37,963 bases of DNA, from the NCBI GenBank assembly GCA_028701715.1, contig JAQVQF010000001.1, forward strand, positions 1 to 37,963, written 5' to 3'. The DNA is from Eubacteriales bacterium. Its GTDB lineage: Bacteria; Bacillota; Clostridia; Oscillospirales; CAG-382. The position numbers and the translations under genes were made by a program. Positions 8,212 through 22,094 of the stretch are shown here, in pieces. The notes beneath the pieces were generated by a model. The model was given only the letters and a program-made list of their open reading frames with translations. It ran no database searches and was not told the DNA's origin. Position 1 is the first letter of the stretch, and every line of letters begins with the position of its first letter.

Positions 8212-8643
8212 TTACATCAAATATAAATCTTTTTCGTTGAGAGTGGTTATGCCGCCGGAGTTGAGCACTTTCTCAGCCTTCGCGTTGTCGTCGACACGGA
8301 GAATTACGCGTGCTTTTCCGGGAGCGCGCGACAGGAAGGCATACAGATACTCCACGCTTACGCCGCCGTCGGAAAGCGTCTTTATCGCTTCGGCGAACGC
8401 GCCCGGACGATCGTCCACCTCCATGGCGACAACCTCTGTGAGCTTGACGGTAAGCCCCATTTCCTTTAACGCCTTTACCGCCTCGTCGGGTTTATCGACT
8501 ATAAGGCGGAGTATGCCGAAATTCGTGGTGTCGGCTATGGAAAGCGCTCTTATATCCACGCCCGCCTTTGCGATGACGCCCGCAATTTCGGAAAGGCGCC
8601 CGGACTGATTCTGTACAAAAATCGAAAGCTGCTTAACAAACAT
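8212..8643 (-). CDS. ACT domain-containing (amino-acid-binding) protein
   Basis: 143 aa with two ACT-like halves (...GRLSEIAGVIAKAGVDIRALS... and ...GAFAEAIKTLSDGGVSVEYLYAF...). It is the last gene of the ior-paaK operon, a position I recall as common for this family. Confidence 0.85.
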   Translation of the reverse strand: MFVKQLSIFVQNQSGRLSEIAGVIAKAGVDIRALSIADTTNFGILRLIVDKPDEAVKALKEMGLTVKLTEVVAMEVDDRPGAFAEAIKTLSDGGVSVEYLYAFLSRAPGKARVILRVDDNAKAEKVLNSGGITTLNEKDLYLM

Positions 8644-8657
8644 GGCGGTTCCTCCCT

Positions 8658-9956
8658 TTATAATTTTCTGTTGTCTATTACCCTCTTCGCCTTGCCTTCG
8701 GAACGCGGAAGCGTCTTCGGCTCGACGAGCGAAACCTTGGCGTGGACGTTCAGCATCGACTGGAGCGCGTTTTCAAGAACCTTTTCCGCTCTTTCTATAT
8801 CGCGCACGGTGTCGGAAACGGTGTTTTCGTTTATTTCAACCTTGACTTCCATGCAGTCGAGGTTGTTTTTTCTGTCTACGATGATAAGGTAATTCGTGCC
8901 GAAGCCCAACTGCGTCAGCGTGTATTCCACCTGTGACGGGAACACGTTTACGCCGCGGATAATGAGCATATCGTCGCTTCTTCCCCTGGGCTTCGCCATC
9001 CTGACGGTGGTCCTGCCGCATTCGCATTTGCCGTGATACAGCGCGGAAATGTCGTGGGTGCGGTAGCGTATGAGAGGCAGCGCCTCCTTGCCTATGCAGG
9101 TGAACACAAGCTCGCCGTATACGCCGTCCTCCACCGGTTCGCCGGTATCTATATCGACAACTTCCGGATAGAAATAATCCTCGTTTACATGCAGATGCTT
9201 CTGGCAGCTGCAGTCGTAGGATACCCCGGGGCCCGTGATTTCGCTCAGTCCGTAAATATCGTATGCCTTTATTCCGAGGAGTTTTTCGATCTCAATCCTC
9301 ATCCCGTCGGTCCATGGCTCCGCGCCGAAAATTCCCGCTCTCAATGAGAGCGATTCGGGCGAGATACCCATATCCTTCATGGTTTCACCGATAAACATGG
9401 CATAAGACGGGGTACAGCAAATAATATCCGAACCGAAATCCTGCAGCAGCTGTACCTGACGGTTGGTGTTGCCGGATGACACGGGGAGCGCGACCGCGCC
9501 CAGCTTTTCCGCGCCGTAATGGAGTCCGAGACCTCCGGTGAACAGTCCGTAGCCGTAGCTGATATGAATTATATCCTCTTTTGTGCCTCCCGCCGCGGCT
9601 ATCGCTCTCGCGGTGGATTCCGCCCATATGTCGATATCACGCTGCGTATAGCCGACAACCGTCTGCTTGCCGGTCGTACCCGACGAGGCGTGAATGCGGA
9701 TTATTTCGCTCTTCGGGACGGCAAACATACCGAAAGGATAATTATCCCTTAAATCCTGCTTGTTGGTGTACGGGAGCTTGGTTATATCATGTATGGATGT
9801 GATACCGTATGGATTTATACCCGCGTCGTCGAATTGCTTTTTATAGAACGGTACGTTTTCATAAGCGCGTTTTACCGTCGCCTTCAGGCGTTCTGTCTGT
9901 ATGGCTTCAAGGGTTTCCCTGTCTGCGCATTCTATTTCTGGTGTGAAAACATTCAT
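8658..9956 (-). CDS. paaK: phenylacetate--CoA ligase family protein
   Basis: 432 aa. ...IHASSGTTGK... (adenylate-forming P-loop), ...YGLSE... and ...GRSDDMLIIRGVNVFP... are PaaK-type motifs. Confidence 0.92.
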   Translation of the reverse strand: MNVFTPEIECADRETLEAIQTERLKATVKRAYENVPFYKKQFDDAGINPYGITSIHDITKLPYTNKQDLRDNYPFGMFAVPKSEIIRIHASSGTTGKQTVVGYTQRDIDIWAESTARAIAAAGGTKEDIIHISYGYGLFTGGLGLHYGAEKLGAVALPVSSGNTNRQVQLLQDFGSDIICCTPSYAMFIGETMKDMGISPESLSLRAGIFGAEPWTDGMRIEIEKLLGIKAYDIYGLSEITGPGVSYDCSCQKHLHVNEDYFYPEVVDIDTGEPVEDGVYGELVFTCIGKEALPLIRYRTHDISALYHGKCECGRTTVRMAKPRGRSDDMLIIRGVNVFPSQVEYTLTQLGFGTNYLIIVDRKNNLDCMEVKVEINENTVSDTVRDIERAEKVLENALQSMLNVHAKVSLVEPKTLPRSEGKAKRVIDNRKL

Positions 9957-12620: not shown

Positions 12621-14039
12621 ATGCGTTCTGCCAAACGCAAAGGTTTCACAATTGTGGAGCTTGTTATAATAATAGCCGTGATTGCGCTCCTCGCAAGCGT
12701 GCTTGTCCCGGTTTTCGGCGGTATTGTTACCAAAGCAAAACGTTCTTCCGCCATGCAGGAGGCGAAAAACCTGCTCACCATGTTAAATTCCGCTTATATT
12801 GCGGAAAACGAGGGTAAGCCGCTTCCGGAGGGAATTGTTCTTGAAAGCGGAGGATACTGGTTTGTATATATTGAAAACAGGCTTTATGAAATCGCTTTAT
12901 CGGGGGAAACCGATTCGGGCGATACCTCTTTTTCCCTTTGGAGCTCGCCGCAATCAAAGGGCGGCGCTTCAGAAATAGCAGCTGTTTTAAATAACGCTCC
13001 GGCAGCTCCCTTCACGATAACCGTCGACGGGGTGGAACGCGAATGCACCGATATCGGCTGTGTGATAACCGATACGGACGAATATGTTTTTGCTTTTTAT
13101 TCCTTAAACGGGCTTGCCGTAGCGGAAAGCGGATACTGCTGCGGAATATACGCGGGTTCGGTTATAAACACGGCAGAATGGTTGAGCGTTCCCCCGGATT
13201 CCACGGATGAAATTCCGAATTCCTCCGGTGAGCCCGATATTCCCATATATTCCGTTTCGTTTGAATTAAACAACTGCGCCGCAGACGGCGCGCCTTCCTG
13301 CTCTCCCGATCACGATTATTCGGTTGCCGTAACTCCCGACGATAACTTTACTCTGTCAGGATCTCCGCTATTAACAATAAACGGAGCTGCTTATAACGGT
13401 TATACATGGAGCGGGGACGATGTTTATATCCTCACCGTACCTAAGGAAGATATAACCGGGGATATTACCGTATCCGTAACCGCGCAGGGTAAAAGCTTTT
13501 CGTTTGGCGTCACGGCGGTCGGCTGCACCGTTGATTCCGCAAACGGTTCCGCGCAATACGGAACAAATCTTACACTCCAATTTACTCCGGGTAATAAATA
13601 TTCGCTTTTTAACTCCACTTTAAATGTAAAAATAGGAGATATACCATGTATTAATGAATTGGAATATTCGTGGAACGATGAAAGCGGTCTTCTTATTATA
13701 TACGGTAATTATATAACAAACAATATTACCGTTTCCGTTACTGCTGTATTATCAAAATGTACATTTATATATAACACTGATATATTATCTCTTAGCATTG
13801 TTGATATAAATAATAAACCAATCGTTATAGGATTAGATGATTATTATATTGACATTGGAAAAGATTTTTCATTTCATATTTTATGCTCGAGCAATATCCA
13901 AACAGTTTATATCGCTATAGTTATAAAAAACAATTTATATTATTTTGAAAACAAACCTGTTGATGAAATTATTACAATAATCGGTAATACAATTAATGCA
14001 GATGTAGATGTTTATATATCTTATCAACCAATATATTAA
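12621..14039 (+). CDS. prepilin-type N-terminal cleavage/methylation domain protein, unusually large (472 aa), with three tandem C-terminal modules
   Basis: The N-terminus MRSAKRKG|FTIVELVIIIAVIALLASVLV has Gly at -1, Phe at +1 and Glu at +5 followed by a hydrophobic helix, the class III signal of type IV pilins and pseudopilins. GGAGG RBS. Three ~80-90-aa modules end in ITGDITVSVTA / ITNNITVSVTA / INADVDVYISY. Confidence 0.85.
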   Translation: MRSAKRKGFTIVELVIIIAVIALLASVLVPVFGGIVTKAKRSSAMQEAKNLLTMLNSAYIAENEGKPLPEGIVLESGGYWFVYIENRLYEIALSGETDSGDTSFSLWSSPQSKGGASEIAAVLNNAPAAPFTITVDGVERECTDIGCVITDTDEYVFAFYSLNGLAVAESGYCCGIYAGSVINTAEWLSVPPDSTDEIPNSSGEPDIPIYSVSFELNNCAADGAPSCSPDHDYSVAVTPDDNFTLSGSPLLTINGAAYNGYTWSGDDVYILTVPKEDITGDITVSVTAQGKSFSFGVTAVGCTVDSANGSAQYGTNLTLQFTPGNKYSLFNSTLNVKIGDIPCINELEYSWNDESGLLIIYGNYITNNITVSVTAVLSKCTFIYNTDILSLSIVDINNKPIVIGLDDYYIDIGKDFSFHILCSSNIQTVYIAIVIKNNLYYFENKPVDEIITIIGNTINADVDVYISYQPIY

Positions 14040-14090
14040 TAATATATTAATTTTATTTTAAAAGTTGATAGACTGCTTTTAACAAAATAC

Positions 14091-14147
14091 CACTTGCATT
14101 ATATATGAAAATAATGTAAAATAATATAATAATTAATAATGCAAGTG
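14091..14147 (+). repeat. 12-bp perfect inverted repeat bracketing an AT-rich 33-nt loop, ending at the RBS of the 933-aa gene
   Basis: CACTTGCATTAT (14091-14102) pairs with ATAATGCAAGTG (14136-14147). The GAGGG RBS begins at 14147 and the ATG is at 14156. Confidence 0.8.
14094..14122 (+). promoter_or_regulatory. possible internal promoter for the 933-aa gene / pilT
   Basis: TTGCAT (14094-14099), 17 nt, TAAAAT (14117-14122), in the AT-rich spacer. The -35 hexamer lies inside the left arm of the 12-bp inverted repeat. Confidence 0.35.
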
Positions 14148-14155
14148 AGGGCACG

Positions 14156-16957
14156 ATGGCGTTACAGCATTTTTTCTCAAGAGTCCCCGCAAGGATGTCC
14201 ATGTTCCGCAAATGCGACAGCTTCGACACCTTCGCGAAATCCAAGGAGCTGACAAAGGAGTACATAAACGGCAATCTGACAAAGATCTGCGAATATAAGC
14301 CGACAGAAGAGGAGCTTGACTTTATTTTACAGGACAAGCTGCCGCCGGTTTACTGCGCTTGCTTCGGCAGGGACGGCGAGGACCTCATCCAGTCGAAATT
14401 TTCCTTTGTTTCTTCGGATTATACCGGCGAACGTCCGAGCTGGCTTTGCCATTCCCTCATATTGAATAAAAACGAAAGCAATCTGCTGTACGGCCGTCCG
14501 GATTCGGTTATGCTAAACCGCGAGGCTTTTCGGCTTTCGCTTGGCGATTTTAACCTCACGGACAAAACCGCCCGTTATATAAACGACTGCCCGACGCCGG
14601 AATATCCCGCGGCGGAAATCGGCTCTCTCACCGCCTGGGCGGAAGGCTATGACGAGCTTGTTATGAAAAAAATTATTTTCGCCGTAATGAACGCCGCCGC
14701 TTCCAATCAGAAGAATGTTTACATAAGCCTTGCGAAGCCGCTCGATACGCTTTCCGAGGAAGCGCTGGATTTTATAAACCGTCTTATGCTTATATTCCCC
14801 GGCGCGGTCAGAAGAAAGATATCGTTTATCACGGAATATAATGACAGCATACAGACTAAAAATTATAAAATTCGTTTTATTCCCGGTCACCTTACGGACC
14901 TTTGCGGCAATCGCGGTTATGTGGTCGACACCGGCAGGAAAATTTCCTACGGCGTTTACGAGGACGATCTTACCGCGGTTAAGGATGAGCTGGATTTTTT
15001 GTACAGCCTTTTTTCCGACGGCAAAACCAGAATAAGCTTTCTCGCGTTTTATGACGAGGCGGCTTCCTCACGCCGTGAAAGCTTGTCCTTCAGCCTGAAA
15101 ATTTTCCTTGACCTTATATATCTTTTCCGCCGAATATGCGGCAAATACGGTGAAAACGAAATCGTCCCGGACGACAACGCCGTGCTGAGGATGATAACCA
15201 CCTATGAAAAATACAGGACCTATTTAAAAACGGAAGACAGGCGGAGTATACTTTCGGTGCTTGACAGATATTCCGAAAGCCGTCTGGCAATACCTCAGAC
15301 AATTTTCACAAGGATAGGTAAAATATACGTTTCCGAGCCCGAGCAGTGCAAAAAGGTCATTATGACCGTGGTTCTTGATCTGCTGCACACGAATATCATG
15401 CGCGACAAGCTGTTCGCTTTTATCGATTCGACCTATGAAAGCGAATCCGCCGCCAGCCGGGATATTATCTGCGAGGATTTATCGAGAGTATTTTACGGCG
15501 GGTTCCTGCAATCGGATATACTGGATTTCTACGGCAAGCATTTCGGCAATGAATCCGAAGCCGTGAAGGAAATTATACTCGAAAAACTCCTTATGACAAT
15601 CCGCACCGAAACCATACAAAGGAAAATACTTGACTTTATCGATAAATATCAGGCATCCGTACCGCCGCATCTCAAGCAGATGATATATCACACCTTTTAT
15701 GAAATGCTGCCCGAAAACGATATGCTTTCCAAGCGTATAATACCGGTAATGGGAAGATGCATGGCCGCTGACGATGAAGAAACAAAGCAGCGTGTTTTTG
15801 AAAGCCTGTTATCCCTTATTTATGCGGACGAGGAAAAGGGCGGCGGCGCATTGCTGGAAATATGCCTTTCCGGTGTGAGAAACAATCTGCCTTTAGGCAA
15901 TATGCTGGTGAAAAGAGCTTTCGGCGAATGGAACGGCGACGCGCGGTTCGAAACGGTGTTAAACAGCTTTCTGGGCGGCTCGCTTATTTCCGTCGGCAAC
16001 GCTCTCAAGCTGCTTTGGGATCTTGTTCCCGTTATTCCCGACGGCGCATATAAAAGGCTGTACGAAAAAGCGTCCGCGCTTATCGTCTCCGTTTCACAGA
16101 AAAACGACCTTTTCGATTTTTTGGATTTCGATAAAAAAGTTCGCGACGCGCTTCGCGAAAGCGGTTCGCAAAACGGCGGGCGTTTTTACGGCGAGCTATA
16201 TTCATCGGTTATAATACCCCTTGTGGGAACCAAGCTTTCCGACGCGTTCAACACTAACCGCAATAAAATCGGTCTGCAGGCGATACTCGATTTAGCGCAG
16301 AGCGAGGAAAAGCTCAAGGAGCTCCCCGGAACGGAGGTCATAAAAGCGGTTATCATGGTTGTTGACCTTGTAAACAAGGGCAGGCATGAAGCCGCTCTCG
16401 GAACACTGATGAACATTCCGCTTTACATGGAATCCGGAAAATTGGTTTCGGAAACCCTCAAAACAGAATTTACCGGTATCGAGGACGCTTCCAACAACAC
16501 GGGAGATATTTACCGGGACGCGGTCATGGGCGCCATGTATTCATATCTTGAAAACGGGAAAATACTCCTTGGCGGAATTTTCGGCAAATGTCTCGAAAGA
16601 AAACGCGCTTTCGACCTTTACAACAAGCCCGTAAAAACCAAATCCTCCGCAAAGGACATCCAGGACGAGGACAGCAGGACAGCCATGACGGTTTTCGCAG
16701 GCATTGTGCGTCTTTGCGTTGCGGTCGGCGTCATGGATTGCGCAAAAGAGGTAAAGGACCAGCTGTTCGCAAACCCCGACAGCGAGCTGGACAAGCTTGC
16801 GAAACGCATACTTGCCGGAGCTACAAAAAAATCCAAGGATTTATACTTTGAAATATATAATTACGCACGACACGGTTCGTTGCGCATAGCGCGCAAGCTT
16901 GAGTCTGCCGTAATGAATACGGACGATTGCCCCAGAGCATTCAAAAAGCTGTTCTAA
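14156..16957 (+). CDS. hypothetical 933-aa soluble, predominantly helical protein
   Basis: A long ORF with neighbour-like codon usage and a GAGGG RBS 4 nt before the ATG. I see no TM segment, no Walker A (GxxxxGK[ST]) and no metal or nuclease motif. It is tightly coupled to pilT, with an 11-nt gap. Confidence 0.85.
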   Translation: MALQHFFSRVPARMSMFRKCDSFDTFAKSKELTKEYINGNLTKICEYKPTEEELDFILQDKLPPVYCACFGRDGEDLIQSKFSFVSSDYTGERPSWLCHSLILNKNESNLLYGRPDSVMLNREAFRLSLGDFNLTDKTARYINDCPTPEYPAAEIGSLTAWAEGYDELVMKKIIFAVMNAAASNQKNVYISLAKPLDTLSEEALDFINRLMLIFPGAVRRKISFITEYNDSIQTKNYKIRFIPGHLTDLCGNRGYVVDTGRKISYGVYEDDLTAVKDELDFLYSLFSDGKTRISFLAFYDEAASSRRESLSFSLKIFLDLIYLFRRICGKYGENEIVPDDNAVLRMITTYEKYRTYLKTEDRRSILSVLDRYSESRLAIPQTIFTRIGKIYVSEPEQCKKVIMTVVLDLLHTNIMRDKLFAFIDSTYESESAASRDIICEDLSRVFYGGFLQSDILDFYGKHFGNESEAVKEIILEKLLMTIRTETIQRKILDFIDKYQASVPPHLKQMIYHTFYEMLPENDMLSKRIIPVMGRCMAADDEETKQRVFESLLSLIYADEEKGGGALLEICLSGVRNNLPLGNMLVKRAFGEWNGDARFETVLNSFLGGSLISVGNALKLLWDLVPVIPDGAYKRLYEKASALIVSVSQKNDLFDFLDFDKKVRDALRESGSQNGGRFYGELYSSVIIPLVGTKLSDAFNTNRNKIGLQAILDLAQSEEKLKELPGTEVIKAVIMVVDLVNKGRHEAALGTLMNIPLYMESGKLVSETLKTEFTGIEDASNNTGDIYRDAVMGAMYSYLENGKILLGGIFGKCLERKRAFDLYNKPVKTKSSAKDIQDEDSRTAMTVFAGIVRLCVAVGVMDCAKEVKDQLFANPDSELDKLAKRILAGATKKSKDLYFEIYNYARHGSLRIARKLESAVMNTDDCPRAFKKLF

Positions 16958-16968
16958 GGAGTAAAGCA

Positions 16969-18000
16969 ATGATTTACAGCGATAAAATAGACGGTTATCT
17001 TGATACCTGTATAAGCGCCAGAGCATCCGACCTTCACCTGAAGGCTTCCATGAATCCTTTTATGAGATATTCCGGGGGGCTTAAATCCATCGACGCCTTC
17101 CCTCTTGACACGACGGAGGTTTACAATTTTATACAGCAGGTGCTCACGCCGGAGCAAAAGGAGAAATATGCTTCGGGCGGCGAGGCGGATTTTTCCTTTT
17201 CGTATTCCGATTACCGCTTCCGCTGCAACGCCTATCACGACCTGCACGGCGACAATCTTGCCCTGCGTCTTTTGGCGCTGGAGCCGGGTGATTTTTCGAA
17301 TTTGGGCATACCGCTTATCCTCAAGGATTTTTCAAAAAAAAGAAGCGGTCTGATACTTATAACAGGTCCCACGGGTTCGGGTAAATCCACTACGCTGACC
17401 TGCATGATAGATTATATAAACGAAAACAAAAACGCTCATATCATAACCCTTGAGGACCCTGTCGAATACATACACACGAGCAAAAAATGCGTCATAACTC
17501 AAAGAGAAATAGGGAAAAACACAAAATCGTTCGGAAAAGCCATCGAAGCGGCAATGCGGCAGGACCCCGATATTATAATGGTGGGTGAAATGCGCGATCT
17601 CGAAAGCGTCGCGGCGGCTATCGCGGCCGCGGAAACCGGACACCTTGTGCTTTCAACCCTTCACACCAAGGGCGCGGAAAGCACGGTCGACCGTATTATA
17701 GATATGTTCCCCGCCGCACAGCAGAACCAAATTCGGGTGCAGCTGGGAATGACGCTGCTTTTGGTATGCTGCCAGCAGCTTGTGCCGGGACTCGAAAGAG
17801 GAAGACGCCATCTTGCCGCGGAGGTTATGGTATGCAATCAGGCAATCCGCAATCTTATCCGTGTCGGGAAAACGCATATGATTTCCTCCACCATGCAAAC
17901 TTCCCGCAAAGAGGGCATGTTTATTATGAAGGATTCGCTTGAAAAGCTCTATACGGAAGGCAAAATTTCCGAAGATGACAAAGAACAGTTTATGTTTTGA
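16969..18000 (+). CDS. pilT: type IV pilus twitching-motility (PilT-family) hexameric ATPase
   Basis: 343 aa from ATG 16969; an AAGGAG RBS lies at 16956-16961 inside the end of the upstream gene. Motifs: ASDLHL, Walker A GPTGSGKST (17365-17391), EDPVEY, Walker B DPDIIMVGEMRD, His box TGHLVLSTLHT, and AIRNLIRVGK. The track start at 16927 is an upstream extension. Confidence 0.9.
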   Translation: MIYSDKIDGYLDTCISARASDLHLKASMNPFMRYSGGLKSIDAFPLDTTEVYNFIQQVLTPEQKEKYASGGEADFSFSYSDYRFRCNAYHDLHGDNLALRLLALEPGDFSNLGIPLILKDFSKKRSGLILITGPTGSGKSTTLTCMIDYINENKNAHIITLEDPVEYIHTSKKCVITQREIGKNTKSFGKAIEAAMRQDPDIIMVGEMRDLESVAAAIAAAETGHLVLSTLHTKGAESTVDRIIDMFPAAQQNQIRVQLGMTLLLVCCQQLVPGLERGRRHLAAEVMVCNQAIRNLIRVGKTHMISSTMQTSRKEGMFIMKDSLEKLYTEGKISEDDKEQFMF

Positions 18001-18069
18001 TAAACAAAGGCAAAAATAAAGAGCAAGGAATGAAAAGCATAAGCCAACGGAAAGGAGAGTGCAACCCGC

Positions 18070-18753
18070 ATGGGCATTGATACGGACAAATCCGCCGGAT
18101 ATTTCCCTTTTTACGGCAGGCTTGCGAATGAGCAAAAAACGGTTCTGTTATCCAATCTGCAAAAGCGGCGCTTTAATAAAGGCGACATAATCCACAGCGG
18201 AGCCGAAGACTGTATAGGGCTGCTTTTGGTTACCGAAGGTCAGCTTAGGGTATACGCGCTTTCTGACGAAGGCAAGGAGCTTACGCTGTACCGACTGTTC
18301 GAACGCGATATGTGCCTGTTTTCGGCCTCCTGCATTATGGCAAGCATTCAGTTTGAAGTAATGATTTCCGCAGAGCGGGACACGCAGACGCTTATCGTGC
18401 CCGCGCTCGTTTACAAGCAGCTGATGACAGATTCCGCCGCGGTGGCGAATTATACAAACGAGCTTATGGCGTCGCGCTTTACGGAAGTCATGTGGCTTAT
18501 AGACCAAATACAGAACAAAAAGCTCGATTCGCGTCTGGCGGCTTTCTTAATCGAGGAAAGCTATCTGACATCGGACAATGTTCTTTCCATCACTCATGAG
18601 GCTATCGCCAACCATCTGGGAAGCATTCGTGAGGTTATCACGCGAATGTTAAAATATTTTCAGGAAGAAGGGCTTGTAAAACTGGGACGCGGGTACATAA
18701 ACCTTACGGACACGGTAAGGCTGACGGATATGGCGAAGAACAGCTTAAAATAA
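18070..18753 (+). CDS. Crp/Fnr family transcriptional regulator (cNMP-binding domain + C-terminal HTH)
   Basis: 227 aa. The beta-roll region is ...FNKGDIIHSGAEDCIGLLLVTEGQLRVYALSDEGKELTLYRL... and the C-terminal HTH is ...SITHEAIANHLGSIREVITRMLKYFQEEGLV... There is no N-terminal Cys cluster. AAAGGAGAG RBS. Confidence 0.88.
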   Translation: MGIDTDKSAGYFPFYGRLANEQKTVLLSNLQKRRFNKGDIIHSGAEDCIGLLLVTEGQLRVYALSDEGKELTLYRLFERDMCLFSASCIMASIQFEVMISAERDTQTLIVPALVYKQLMTDSAAVANYTNELMASRFTEVMWLIDQIQNKKLDSRLAAFLIEESYLTSDNVLSITHEAIANHLGSIREVITRMLKYFQEEGLVKLGRGYINLTDTVRLTDMAKNSLK

Positions 18754-18770
18754 TGTCCACTGAATAAATC

Positions 18771-18808
18771 AAAAACCAAGCCGCGATGCGGCTTTCCCGG
18801 TTTTTTTA
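18771..18808 (+). terminator. intrinsic terminator after the Crp-family gene
   Basis: AAGCCGC (18778-18784), GAT, GCGGCTT (18788-18794). An outer AAAAACC/GGTTTTT pairing encloses it and a T7 run follows at 18801-18807. Confidence 0.7.
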
Positions 18809-18847
18809 TTTATTCAAGTGCAAGGTTTTTACATTAAAATAAATATT

Positions 18848-18916: not shown

Positions 18917-19222
18917 ATGTCTGTTTTAGTTATTAATAAGGAAAATTTTAAAGAAAAGGTGCTACAGTCCGAAAAGCCGGTGCTTTTGGATTTATGGGCT
19001 ACCTGGTGCGGACCCTGTAAAATGCTATCACCCGTTGTGGAGGAGCTTGCGGAGGACCACCCGGAAATCACGGTGGGTAAAATAAACGTGGACGAAGAAC
19101 CCGAACTCGCCCAGGCGTTTCAGGTATCGTCAATCCCCATGCTTGTGCTGGTGCAGGACGGTAAGGTTAAGAATGTTTCCGTGGGCTACAAGCGCAAGAA
19201 TCAGATTGAGCAATTGTTCTGA
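18917..19222 (+). CDS. trxA: thioredoxin
   Basis: 101 aa from ATG 18917, with an AGGAGG RBS 7 nt upstream. It has the WCGPC active site (LWATWCGPCKMLSP) and ...SIPMLVL... The track start at 18818 is an unsupported extension. Confidence 0.93.
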   Translation: MSVLVINKENFKEKVLQSEKPVLLDLWATWCGPCKMLSPVVEELAEDHPEITVGKINVDEEPELAQAFQVSSIPMLVLVQDGKVKNVSVGYKRKNQIEQLF

Positions 19223-19227
19223 ATATC

Positions 19228-19611
19228 ATGGGAATCTACGCAAGGATTGCGGGAATATTCGCGGCAATCGCGGTGGCGGCGACCGCGGTTGTTATGCTGC
19301 TGACCGGCTATAAAAAATCCGATATTGACCGCGGAATAGAGCAGTATCACAACACACCGGGAGCGGTTCTCGTCGATGTAAGAACCGAAGAGGAATACGC
19401 CGAGGGACATATCCCCGGAAGCGTCAATATTCCGTTGCAAAGCATACAGGATATCGAGTCTGTCGCCACAGATAAAAACACTCCGCTTTTCCTGTACTGC
19501 CGCAGCGGCAGAAGAAGCGGAGAGGCAAAATCGACGCTTGAAGAAGCGGGGTATGTCAACGTATATAATATCGGAGGAATAATCGACTACAGCGGGGAGC
19601 TTGAACGCTGA
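19228..19611 (+). CDS. membrane-anchored rhodanese-like sulfurtransferase
   Basis: 127 aa. It has an N-terminal TM helix (IAGIFAAIAVAATAVVMLL), ...LVDVRTEEEYAEGHIPGSVNIP... and the active-site loop YCRSGRRS. It starts 5 nt after trxA. Confidence 0.88.
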   Translation: MGIYARIAGIFAAIAVAATAVVMLLTGYKKSDIDRGIEQYHNTPGAVLVDVRTEEEYAEGHIPGSVNIPLQSIQDIESVATDKNTPLFLYCRSGRRSGEAKSTLEEAGYVNVYNIGGIIDYSGELER

Positions 19612-19649
19612 CTGTTTTATACTCTGTTGCGGATGAAAGGACTATTGTC

Positions 19650-22094
19650 ATGAAAACTGTTATAATAGGCGGTGTGGCGGGAGGGGCATCCTGCGCCGCA
19701 AGACTTCGCAGACTGGATGAAAACGCCGAAATCGTAATCCTTGAAAAAGGCGAATATATTTCCTACGCCAACTGCGGGCTTCCCTACCATGTGGGAGGCG
19801 TGATAAAGGAAAGGGACGTCCTTATACTTCAATCGCCCGAGGCTATGAAGGCAAAGTTCGCCATAGATATACGCACAAGGAATGAAGTGACGGCTATAAA
19901 CCGCGATAAAAAGACCGTTACGGTAAAACGGACGGATACCGGTGAAAGCTATGAGGAAGCTTACGACAAGCTTGTGATCGCCACGGGCTCCTCGCCCGTA
20001 CGGCCGCCCATACCGGGTATAGATTCCCCGCGAATAAAAACATTATGGACGATACCCGATACGGATGCCGTAATCGCTCTCATCAAAGAAAGGAACGTTA
20101 AAAAAGCGGCGGTTATAGGCGGCGGCTTTATAGGGCTTGAAATGGCGGAAAATCTCTGCCACGCGGGTGTTAAAGTGGCGGTTGTGGAAATGCTCGATCA
20201 GGTGATGGCTGCTCTCGATTACGAGATGGCGCAGCTTGTTCACCGACACCTTGCCGAAAACGGGGTGGAGCTTTATCTTTCCGACGGAGTGAGCGGTTTT
20301 TCCGATAACGCGGACGGCATAGCAGTAAATTTAAAAAGCGGGAACACTGTCGCCGCCGACATGGTAATTTTAGCAATCGGGGTGCGTCCCAACGGCGCGC
20401 TTGCGAAGGACGCGGGGCTTGAGGTAAACGCGCGCGGCGGAATTGTCACGGACGACCGTCTGCGTACTTCCGACAAGGATATTTACGCCGTGGGCGACGT
20501 TATCGAGGTGGAGGATTTTATCTTCGGCGACCGAACGATGATACCGCTCGCCGGTCCCGCAAACAAACAGGGGCGAATCGCCGCGGACAATATCGCCGGA
20601 GCGGATGAAGCTTACAGCGGTACACAGGGCTCGTCCGTCGCCAAGGTGTTCGATCTCACCGTCGCTTCCACGGGTGCCGCCGAAAAAGCGCTTACAAAGC
20701 GCGGGCTGGTCAAGGGTAAGGATTACGAAACCGTCATTATTGTACAAAATTCACACGCGGGTTATTACCCCGGCGCGGTGCCCATGACTTTAAAGCTTGT
20801 GTTCGCGTCCGACGGCTCGAGGATATACGGCGCGCAGATAATAGGCAGCGAGGGCGCGGATAAGCGTATCGATACCATAGGCGCGGCAATAAGGCTCGGC
20901 GGCACGGTTAAAGACCTGAAAAATCTTGAATTTGCCTATGCGCCCCCTTATTCGTCCGCAAAGGACCCGGTAAACATGCTCGGATTCGCGGCGGAAAATC
21001 TTATTGCGAAAAAAATGCGATTTACGGACTGGGACGGCGTCGAAAAGGACAAAAACGCCTTTCTTATAGACGTGCGCGAGTACGCGGAGGTTACCGGTTT
21101 TGCGGTGCCCGGCGCGCTCAATATTCCTTTGGGAGAGCTTCGCGGAAGAATAAACGAGCTTACTCCTTACAGGGATAAACATATAATTATATTTTGCGCC
21201 ATAGGCGTGCGCTCCTACAGCGCCGCGCGGATACTGGCTCAGCTCGGCTTCGGCAATGTTTCCGTCTATCCGGGCGGCAGCCGTTTCTATAAATCCACGC
21301 ATTATAAGGAATTCGATACAAATACAAAAAAATTAAAGCAGTCATCAACGCAGGTCAAACCGGTTTTCGGCAAAGCCTTAACCCTTGATTGCAGCGGGCT
21401 GCAATGCCCCGGGCCCATAATGAAGGTTTATGAAACCGTACAGGCAATGACAGACGGCGAAACGCTGGAAATTTCGGCTTCCGACCCCGGCTTTGTCAGC
21501 GACATCGACACCTGGTGCCGCCGCACGGGAAACACCTTGATTTCAAAGGGACGCAAGGATAATATATATACTGCCTTAATTCAAAAAAGCTTGTCTTCAA
21601 CGACGTCGGCGGTACGCGACACCGCGGACGGAAAAACCATTATAGTGTTTTCGGGCGACCTCGACAAGGTGCTGGCGAGCTTTATAATTGCCAACGGCGC
21701 CGCCGCGATGGGCAGGAAGGTCACCATGTTCTTCACCTTCTGGGGGTTGACCGTGCTGCGAAGATCAAATAAACAGAAGCTTAAGAAGACCTTTATGGAA
21801 GCCATGTTCGGACGTATGTTGCCCCGCGGGAGCGGCAAGCTCAAGCTTTCCAAAATGAATATGGGCGGCATGGGCACCGCGATGATGAAACGAATAATGA
21901 AGGATAAAAACGTCGATTCTCTCGATGCGCTGATACAGAAAGCAATAAAAAGCGGCGTGAGGATTGTCGCCTGCACAATGAGCATGGACGTTATGGGAAT
22001 TAAAAAAGAGGAGCTTATCGACGGCGTGGAGTTTGCCGGAGTCGGCTCATACCTCGGCGACGCGGAGGAATCCAACGTAAATCTGTTTATATAA
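19650..22094 (+). CDS. four-domain fusion: CoA-disulfide/persulfide reductase-like FAD oxidoreductase + rhodanese + TusA-like + DsrE/DsrF-like
   Basis: 814 aa. Motifs seen: FAD GxGxxG (IIGGVAGGASCA), redox Cys42 in SYANCGLPY, NAD site VIGGGFIGLE. Also a rhodanese loop FCAIGVRS (Cys516, nt 21195-21197), TusA CPGP (Cys586, nt 21405-21407) and a DsrE-like tail (...IIVFSGDLDK...VACTMSMDVMG, Cys775). Confidence 0.88.
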   Translation: MKTVIIGGVAGGASCAARLRRLDENAEIVILEKGEYISYANCGLPYHVGGVIKERDVLILQSPEAMKAKFAIDIRTRNEVTAINRDKKTVTVKRTDTGESYEEAYDKLVIATGSSPVRPPIPGIDSPRIKTLWTIPDTDAVIALIKERNVKKAAVIGGGFIGLEMAENLCHAGVKVAVVEMLDQVMAALDYEMAQLVHRHLAENGVELYLSDGVSGFSDNADGIAVNLKSGNTVAADMVILAIGVRPNGALAKDAGLEVNARGGIVTDDRLRTSDKDIYAVGDVIEVEDFIFGDRTMIPLAGPANKQGRIAADNIAGADEAYSGTQGSSVAKVFDLTVASTGAAEKALTKRGLVKGKDYETVIIVQNSHAGYYPGAVPMTLKLVFASDGSRIYGAQIIGSEGADKRIDTIGAAIRLGGTVKDLKNLEFAYAPPYSSAKDPVNMLGFAAENLIAKKMRFTDWDGVEKDKNAFLIDVREYAEVTGFAVPGALNIPLGELRGRINELTPYRDKHIIIFCAIGVRSYSAARILAQLGFGNVSVYPGGSRFYKSTHYKEFDTNTKKLKQSSTQVKPVFGKALTLDCSGLQCPGPIMKVYETVQAMTDGETLEISASDPGFVSDIDTWCRRTGNTLISKGRKDNIYTALIQKSLSSTTSAVRDTADGKTIIVFSGDLDKVLASFIIANGAAAMGRKVTMFFTFWGLTVLRRSNKQKLKKTFMEAMFGRMLPRGSGKLKLSKMNMGGMGTAMMKRIMKDKNVDSLDALIQKAIKSGVRIVACTMSMDVMGIKKEELIDGVEFAGVGSYLGDAEESNVNLFI

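Follow-up and report, generated by a model that had tools for sequence, protein, structure and literature searches.

The subject of this analysis is a 933-amino-acid protein encoded directly upstream of pilT in the window, meaning the whole stretch of DNA that was analysed, a complete 37,963-bp metagenome-assembled genome (MAG) contig labelled Eubacteriales bacterium. Among described systems the first comparison is with GAP1 (GTPase-associated protein 1), which was defined by comparative genomics as the partner of double-GTPases (DO-GTPases) in predicted conflict systems (Kaur et al., eLife 2020, PMC7159879). That paper does not mention pili, PilT or PilB, and a literature search found no experimental work on GAP1. 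The 933-aa protein is like GAP1 in having N-terminal GAP1-N2 and GAP1-M domains, in being encoded beside a P-loop NTPase gene, in its large variable C-terminal region and in occurring in Firmicutes, but its family partners a hexameric PilB/PilT ATPase instead of a double-GTPase. Neighbourhoods of GAP1-N2 genes have FNIII-repeat, tubulin, HSP70 or kinase genes, whereas the 933-aa family has none of these and no effector. Judged from sequence and gene order, a plausible role for the 933-aa protein is that of a dedicated partner to an ATPase of the PilT/PilB superfamily. Most likely it serves an ordinary pilus as an accessory or regulator that has so far gone unrecognised, and is not a component of a novel machine.

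A second comparison is with TagF, the post-translational checkpoint inhibitor of type VI secretion systems (T6SS; PDB 9t0n, 6iz8), in which an α+β domain at the N-terminus is followed by an α/β domain at the C-terminus, and which brings the assembly of the T6SS to a halt. TagF is the best fold match to the two-domain head of the 933-aa protein, and it too is a cytoplasmic accessory that is encoded within a secretion-nanomachine operon and gates assembly. Unlike the 933-aa protein, TagF has no solenoid tail and binds Fha or Hcp rather than an ATPase, and it occurs in diderm T6SS loci while the 933-aa family sits beside type IV pilus genes; sequence similarity between the two is undetectable. 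The eukaryotic longin-DENN modules (C9orf72-SMCR8, FLCN-FNIP, DENND10 and GATOR1) share the predicted arrangement of a longin-like domain followed by an α/β domain and regulate P-loop NTPases, and their partners are small GTPases. According to Zhang et al. 2012, DENN and d-DENN are known only within the DENN module, which they traced through eukaryotes. Neither a GTPase gene nor a T6SS gene was found beside 933-aa family genes in the neighbourhoods examined.

Cytoplasmic factors that decide when or where PilB or PilT engages the machine are also known, and in this they are like what is proposed here. They include MglA, MglB and SofG, which exert polarity control over PilB and PilT in Myxococcus, FimX-PilZ-PilB, and Aqs1, a phage inhibitor of PilB. 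MglB has a roadblock/longin-type fold. None of these factors is homologous to the 933-aa protein or is a ~900-aa solenoid encoded beside the motor, and the 933-aa locus has neither a small GTPase nor a cyclic di-GMP (c-di-GMP) domain. Among type IV pilus clusters of Gram-positive bacteria, that of Ruminococcus flavefaciens 007 (PMC3672088) shares the core set of pilM, pilC/F, pilB, pilT, pilD and pilins, but it has no GAP1-like gene, whereas the window's pilT is separate and paired with the 933-aa gene. No paper linking GAP1, DO-GTPase, DENN or TagF to pili was found in the literature search.

The 933-aa gene and pilT are arranged in the window as follows.

14156-16957, plus strand: open reading frame (ORF) of the 933-aa protein, with its TAA stop at 16955-16957.
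14156..14500, plus strand: residues 1-115 of the 933-aa protein, the GAP1-N2 domain (Pfam, AlphaFold2 (AF2), Foldseek).
14501..14965, plus strand: residues 116-270, the GAP1-M domain (Pfam, head model, Foldseek).
14966..16957, plus strand: residues 271-933, an all-helical solenoid as predicted by AF2.
16956..16961, plus strand: pilT ribosome-binding site (RBS) AAGGAG, overlapping the stop of the 933-aa gene, 7 nt before the ATG at 16969.
16969..18000, plus strand: pilT, a retraction-type hexameric ATPase of 343 aa (TIGR01420).

A sequence-only reading of the window had located the ORFs, spacers, RBS and terminator, and all of them are present in the sequence where it placed them, including the 11-nt gap between the 933-aa stop at 16957 and the pilT ATG at 16969. 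One detail needs amending: the RBS overlaps the stop codon of the 933-aa gene and does not lie within its last sense codons. The ORF list starts pilT at TTG 16927, and the ATG at 16969 yields the 343-aa protein of NCBI and of all homologues. There is no structure at the junction, the gap of 9-11 nt recurs in related loci (L001, L003 and L081), and the two genes appear to be translationally coupled. By its sequence the encoded PilT is a true ATPase of the retraction type, with 414 bits against TIGR01420 (curated cutoff 319) and, in the PDB, 291 bits to A. aeolicus PilT crystal structures against about 105 to PilB. Its length fits the ~345-aa PilT type without N-terminal PilB-type domains, and its translation contains Walker A GPTGSGKST and QAIRNLIRVGK; the AIRNLIR motif is, as far as is known, specific to PilT.

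The relatives of the locus, numbered L001 onward, were collected by scanning one genome per species, which gave 80 loci with relatives of the 933-aa protein (here called GAP1-like), and the neighbouring ORFs were clustered and the cluster representatives annotated. All 80 are from Clostridia MAGs of gut or rumen (Acutalibacteraceae, Oscillospiraceae, Faecousia, Ruminococcus-labelled and others). The window's own clade comprises about four species. The informative distant loci, those with upstream sequence, number 74, and their homologues are 27-38% identical. In 65 of these 74, pilB lies upstream on the same strand; it is directly adjacent in 62, and the median gap between pilB and the GAP1-like gene is 32 nt. 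These operons run from a large pilin through a pilin, three minor pilin-like genes and a ~400-aa PilM-like gene to PilD (peptidase A24), PilC (T2SSF) and PilB (T2SSE + MshEN), with the GAP1-like gene last. Pfam confirmed the identities of the pilins, PilD, PilC and PilB. The 398-aa gene (cluster 3) has no Pfam or NCBIfam match and its top PDB match is PilM at E = 0.22, so it is called PilM-like tentatively. Neither PilN nor PilO was recognisable in the pilus operons of the distant loci.

The linkage to pilT is confined to close relatives. The order GAP1-like, pilT, crp, thioredoxin is found only in the window, L001/L081, L002, L003 and L082, the last being the one further locus that a metagenome scan with the pilT-linked clade returned; the GAP1-like/pilT gap is 9-11 nt in the window, L001, L003, L081 and L082, and 44 nt in L002. 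A near-identical strain (L083) carries the pilin-like and GAP1-like genes on a contig that ends before pilT. PilT identity is 83-88% inside the window's clade and 59% or less outside it. The next PilT orthologues are found after pilB in a pilus operon (L084, L088) or alone between unrelated genes (L086). Two genomes hold both paralogous pairs on separate contigs, JBMNMA01 (L001 and L036) and UBA1389 (L003 and L045), and in both the pilB-linked paralogue stands at the end of a full pilus operon. In a neighbour-joining tree the pilT-linked clade falls next to the paralogues linked to pilB in those same genomes, a placement that raw region identities do not bear out. As a side observation, L036 has an extra 515-aa gene (8395-9942) between pilB and the GAP1-like paralogue, with only a weak SAP-domain match.

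The gene context carries the most weight here. The proposal of the sequence-only reading that the 933-aa protein is a dedicated ATPase partner is thus supported by the 65 distant loci together with the window's clade, all of them ATPase-linked. The neighbourhood it asked about is conserved in part: homologues do sit beside a PilT/PilB-superfamily ATPase, but this is mostly PilB and not PilT. Because the family is linked to two different paralogous motors, the ATPase is the better candidate for the partner than another pilus part.

The 933-aa protein had been called an unknown, and this does not hold. It matches GAP1-N2 (PF20013; 29.2 bits, cutoff 24, aa 4-110, E = 1e-6) and GAP1-M (PF20014; 28.9 bits, cutoff 24, aa 158-258, E = 1e-6), both above threshold, and among 21 sampled family members GAP1-N2 is matched in all 21 and GAP1-M in 19. 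Beyond aa 258 there is no Pfam match of any kind, GAP1-C included. An exhaustive family-profile search of 1.84 billion representative proteins gave 348 matches, including about 65 full-length clusters of the ~900-aa subfamily. A second tier of matches covers only positions 1 to ~330 (E 1e-27 to 1e-34), and the sampled second-tier proteins are canonical GAP1, with GAP1-N2 at 133-154 bits. For this reason the head of the 933-aa protein is taken, on sequence grounds, to be truly homologous to GAP1, with the remaining ~600 residues specific to the subfamily. The invariant polar residues of the family (D21, D24, T25, D88 and R93) are all in the first domain. Residues 271-530 are conserved family-wide, with YGGFLQ and MRDKLF motifs and 38-43% identity, against 15-20% in the fast-diverging residues 531-933.

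Of the profile and structure searches that had been suggested for the protein, those that reached the head gave GAP1 and TagF/DENN-like matches, while the search of the family sequence profile against the PDB returned nothing meaningful. A Pfam scan of the 21 members at E ≤ 1 found no DENN, longin or TagF family. PADLOC left the 933-aa protein unmatched, and its matches to PilT are generic P-loop matches. The partnership was to fail if the protein belonged to an already characterised family, and it does not really do so, because GAP1 has been defined only computationally.

One member of the family stands apart. At L041 (3361-13309) a 1121-aa member lies outside any pilus operon, downstream of a 581-aa zinc-ribbon protein that is two genes away and has a weak, below-threshold match to DO-GTPase2 (E = 0.004), and two large unannotated proteins are also encoded upstream of it. 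An hhalign comparison of an 866-aa L041 neighbour with the 933-aa family was insignificant. The locus may be a bridge to canonical GAP1 systems.

The homology of the head raises the question of whether the family is itself a conflict (anti-phage) system of the GAP1 type, its double-GTPase replaced by an ATPase of the PilB/PilT type. The protein would then sense infection, by pilus-dependent phages or through the PilB inhibitors of such phages for instance, and would shut down or hijack the motor instead of serving normal pilus function. Pili are common phage receptors, which counts for this explanation, as do the kinship of the head with GAP1 of predicted DO-GTPase conflict systems, the rapid evolution of the solenoid relative to PilB and the zinc-ribbon neighbour at L041. 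It is nonetheless unlikely. No effector domain is fused or adjacent, PADLOC leaves the protein unmatched, and across many genera the gene keeps a fixed place at the end of a housekeeping pilus operon rather than in a variable island. The window's 933-aa gene has the pilin-like gene and pilT as neighbours and no adjacent double-GTPase gene, and the conserved neighbour clusters of the family contain no FN3 matches. By the account of Kaur et al. (PMC7159879), systems do not exchange the DO-GTPase-GAP1 pair, so the conflict model does not predict a pairing with PilB or PilT.

The AF2 model of the 933-aa protein, built on a 98-sequence alignment, has a mean predicted local distance difference test (pLDDT) score of 91.5. 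Residues 1-265 are predicted to form two α/β domains and residues 270-933 a continuous α-solenoid of ~660 residues. In the model the GAP1-N2 domain (residues 1-115) has the longin-like ββαβββα order, and the GAP1-M domain (residues 116-270) is predicted to have an α/β fold like the central DENN domain; a d-DENN domain was not identified. Foldseek with the full-length model returned only generic HEAT/ARM-type solenoid scaffolds (TM ≤ 0.2), and the head was therefore modelled separately (pLDDT 92.6, predicted TM-score (pTM) 0.91). The best match of the head is TagF of Acinetobacter baylyi (E = 2.4e-5), then C9orf72-SMCR8 and DENND10, then TagF of P. aeruginosa, FLCN and FNIP2, with GATOR1 lower; TagF or DENN/longin proteins make up nine of the ten best matches (E 2.4e-5 to 6e-2, probability up to 1.0).

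The long predicted solenoid, a typical scaffold, could also mean that the 933-aa protein is a structural cytoplasmic part of the basal body which replaces PilN/PilO-type alignment proteins and is not an ATPase regulator. The pilus operons would fit this, since they show a PilM-like gene (tentative, as above) with PilN and PilO unrecognised. However, a structural core is not expected to duplicate and pair specifically with pilT, six loci hold the gene without neighbouring pilus genes, and the protein has no transmembrane segment, its highest KD19 value being 1.95 in a solenoid helix that contains Arg. A basal-body part is thus quite unlikely. The helix in question is aa 842-860 (window 16679-16735), TAMTVFAGIVRLCVAVGVM, moderately hydrophobic with one Arg, and in the model it is probably a buried solenoid core helix. 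Some canonical GAP1-N2 proteins carry C-terminal membrane segments (PMC7159879).

The preferred reading is that the 933-aa protein is a cytoplasmic, motor-specific accessory whose head engages the ATPase and whose predicted solenoid scaffolds or blocks contacts with the basal body; it is regarded as probable, if narrowly so. It is built on homology, predicted fold and tight gene linkage, from which we infer binding, the direction of the effect and co-transcription. The unit at 14079-18815 would be the module that holds the retraction motor of a type IV pilus system that is conventional in other respects, with the assembly genes (pilins, pilM-like, pilD, pilC and pilB) elsewhere in the genome. 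The cytoplasmic protein would have a divergent GAP1-N2 + GAP1-M head (aa 1-270), for whose relatives the binding of P-loop NTPases or the gating of secretion-machine assembly is either known or proposed, and a scaffold-type α-solenoid tail (aa 271-933). This small subfamily belongs to gut and rumen Clostridia, where its genes would normally close the pilus operon and share a transcript with pilB, and in the window's lineage a second paralogue would have come to lie upstream of pilT. Each paralogue would bind its cognate hexameric motor, and would then either attach that motor to the PilM/PilC basal body or control its access or its nucleotide cycle. The outcome would be the timing of pilus extension for the pilB-linked copy, or of retraction for the pilT-linked copy. 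The pilin-like gene would be a recently acquired, strain-variable passenger whose product the same pilus machinery may use.

Several observations weigh against the motor-accessory reading. The pilB operon of the window's own genome is deduced from sister genomes. The C-terminal solenoid is 15-24% identical between relatives against 65-88% for PilB, a pattern also compatible with a role in conflict. No GAP1-like gene lies next to the PilT orthologues at 54-58% identity, so a partner of this kind is not a general requirement of PilT. The GAP1-like gene has no neighbouring ATPase in 9 of the 74 loci, and adjacency is thus not obligatory; six of these nine sit between greA and pepF (L065, L069, L071, L075, L078 and L079). 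The fold matches of the head have low TM-scores (TMq 0.19-0.37), and DENN/TagF has no sequence-level signal.

At the six greA-pepF loci, ackA lies upstream of greA and pilus genes are absent nearby; their closest relatives (L053, L062, L073, L076 and L077) have a pilus operon upstream and pepF downstream. Apparently the pilus operon was lost or moved at these loci and the GAP1-like gene was retained. The nine loci without an ATPase, and the fact that every locus is from one order-level group of Clostridia, could be taken to mean that the adjacency is functionally meaningless and simply inherited synteny. This is hardly credible, since the gene adjoins two different paralogous ATPases in two gene orders, and gaps of 9-50 nt hold across proteins that have diverged to 27-38% identity.

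The low TM-scores and the absence of sequence-level support are also why the DENN/TagF-like fold of the head is held to be likely but unsettled. A narrower version of the accessory reading depends on that fold, namely that a longin/DENN-like module joined to a HEAT-like solenoid is a dedicated nucleotide-cycle or docking regulator of PilB/PilT ATPases, with separate paralogues for each motor. This is possible but on the whole doubtful.

The remaining features of the unit are as follows.

12621..14039, plus strand: pilin-like (prepilin) gene, 472 aa (Pfam N_methyl and PDB pilin α1 matches).
14040-14155: AT-rich spacer of 116 nt between the pilin-like gene and the 933-aa gene (sequence reading).
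14079..14155, plus strand: conserved 5' region of the GAP1-like (933-aa) gene with a promoter-like element (identity among relatives).
18070..18753, plus strand: crp, a Crp/Fnr-family regulator gene, 227 aa (HTH_Crp_2, Crp).
18762..18815, plus strand: intrinsic terminator closing the unit, with its core hairpin at 18778-18794 followed by a T-run.

The textbook prepilin signal that had been read in the 472-aa protein is confirmed. The protein has the class III signal KRKG|FTIVE (G-1, F+1, E+5), and the α1 helix behind it is hydrophobic (KD19 3.16 at aa 14-32); the protein matches Pfam N_methyl above threshold (21.9 bits, cutoff 21.2), and its N-terminal α1 matches solved type IV pilins in the PDB (E = 8.5e-10). 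The C-terminal region is β-rich. No other prepilin motif is present in the window. As to the gene being a conserved member of the unit, the comparison with relatives says otherwise: it is missing at this position in L001, L002, L003, L081 and L082, where the ior operon runs straight into the GAP1-like gene. The near-identical strain L083 does have it, but the last ~155 aa differ. On this comparison the pilin-like gene is a lineage-specific, strain-variable accessory and not a conserved part of the unit.

Window positions 13565-14077, the last ~155 codons of the pilin-like gene with its 3' flank, have zero nucleotide match to L083 4135-4683, and the flanks are 99.4-99.6% identical on both sides. 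The two proteins are ~99% identical to about aa 314 and ~25-35% identical thereafter. GC content in the gene drops from about 0.5 to 0.19 after 13521, and is 0.19-0.27 in the window's distal version. From the sequences, this looks like a strain-level cassette swap of distal β-rich modules, and the strain-differing C-terminal cassette may mark strain-level variation in adhesion. Very large pilin-like proteins of 509-726 aa, some with Big_2 Ig-like domains, recur in the pilus loci of these Clostridia (L088 7303-11661, L052 1194-2723), and the window's 472-aa protein is of the same general kind.

The sequence-only reading had raised the possibility that the pilin-like protein, the 933-aa protein, PilT and the Crp-family protein make up a self-contained machine, non-canonical but filament-related or not a pilus machine at all, that is controlled by cyclic nucleotides. 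All four genes do point the same way, with no hairpin before 18762, and the claimed absence of PilB, PilC and PilD from the window is borne out: neither these nor a PilM-like protein was found there, and tblastn with these queries recovers only pilT. The gene content of relatives makes such a machine very unlikely. Five related loci keep the other genes without the pilin-like gene, and elsewhere the family mostly closes a complete type IV pilus operon, also in the sister genomes JBMNMA01 and UBA1389, which share the pilT-linked pair yet hold a pilus operon with its own paralogue. A pilT apart from assembly genes is found in L086 as well, and the cNMP_binding match of the Crp-family protein is sub-threshold.

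The ~77 nt before the ATG of the 933-aa gene are 76-85% identical in L001, L002 and L003, all of which lack the pilin gene. Within them TTGCAT (14094-14099) and TAAAAT (14117-14122), 17 nt apart, make up a promoter-like element, which a scan for consensus promoters left out because its -35 agrees with the consensus at only 3/6 positions. Given this conservation and the promoter-like element, a promoter of its own is probable for the GAP1-like-pilT(-crp) unit. The element is flanked by a perfect 12-bp inverted repeat, CACTTGCATTAT / ATAATGCAAGTG, at 14091-14102 and 14136-14147; the repeat is window-specific, not being kept in the sister species L001 and L082, and could be an operator or a 5' hairpin. 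An Rfam scan of the window and two spacers found no riboswitch and no other RNA, and with this negative scan a c-di-GMP riboswitch upstream of the pilin gene was rejected.

As had been read, crp follows pilT after 69 nt without a hairpin (z = 0.04). The terminator, which had been put at 18771-18808, is a hairpin at 18762-18815 with a free energy (dG) of -20 kcal/mol and a z of -5.2, a fold that no sequence among 200 shuffles equals; the scan also picks the hairpin up on the minus strand. No junction hairpins precede it, and crp is probably co-transcribed with pilT by read-through. The Crp-family protein has a C-terminal Crp-type helix-turn-helix (HTH), with HTH_Crp_2 at 50.7 bits and Crp at 34.1 bits, both above threshold; it scores 25.5 bits against cNMP_binding (Pfam cutoff 27.5) and falls far under the cutoffs of all NCBIfam equivalogs. 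The synteny of crp with pilT is limited to close relatives, and the gene could equally be a regulator of the downstream redox/sulfur cluster. The flanks are those that had been described, an ior-type operon on one side and a thioredoxin/rhodanese/CoA-disulfide-reductase cluster on the other. Past the terminator, 18917-22094 encodes a thioredoxin, a rhodanese and an 814-aa CoA-disulfide-reductase-like fusion, whose rhodanese domain is annotated on a shorter 548-aa protein of a sister locus.

Altogether this suggests either that a GAP1-family protein has taken motor ATPases of type IV pili as its new partners, or that a pilus system contains an accessory component that is new. How the decision between pilus extension and retraction is made is an open question, and it is least understood in Gram-positive bacteria, in which to our knowledge no motor-specific pilus regulators are known. 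The ~900-aa protein, which is conserved and encoded next to pilB in dozens of Clostridia of gut and rumen and has a sister copy next to pilT, is a testable candidate for such a regulator. The family breaks the stated rule that GAP1 pairs only with double-GTPases, and its bacterial DENN/TagF-like predicted fold bears on the origin of the eukaryotic GTPase-regulator modules. If the longin/DENN-like regulator reading is true, this would be the first DENN/GAP1-type module found to control a motor that is not a GTPase, and it would give abundant gut Clostridia a further, new level of control over their type IV pili.

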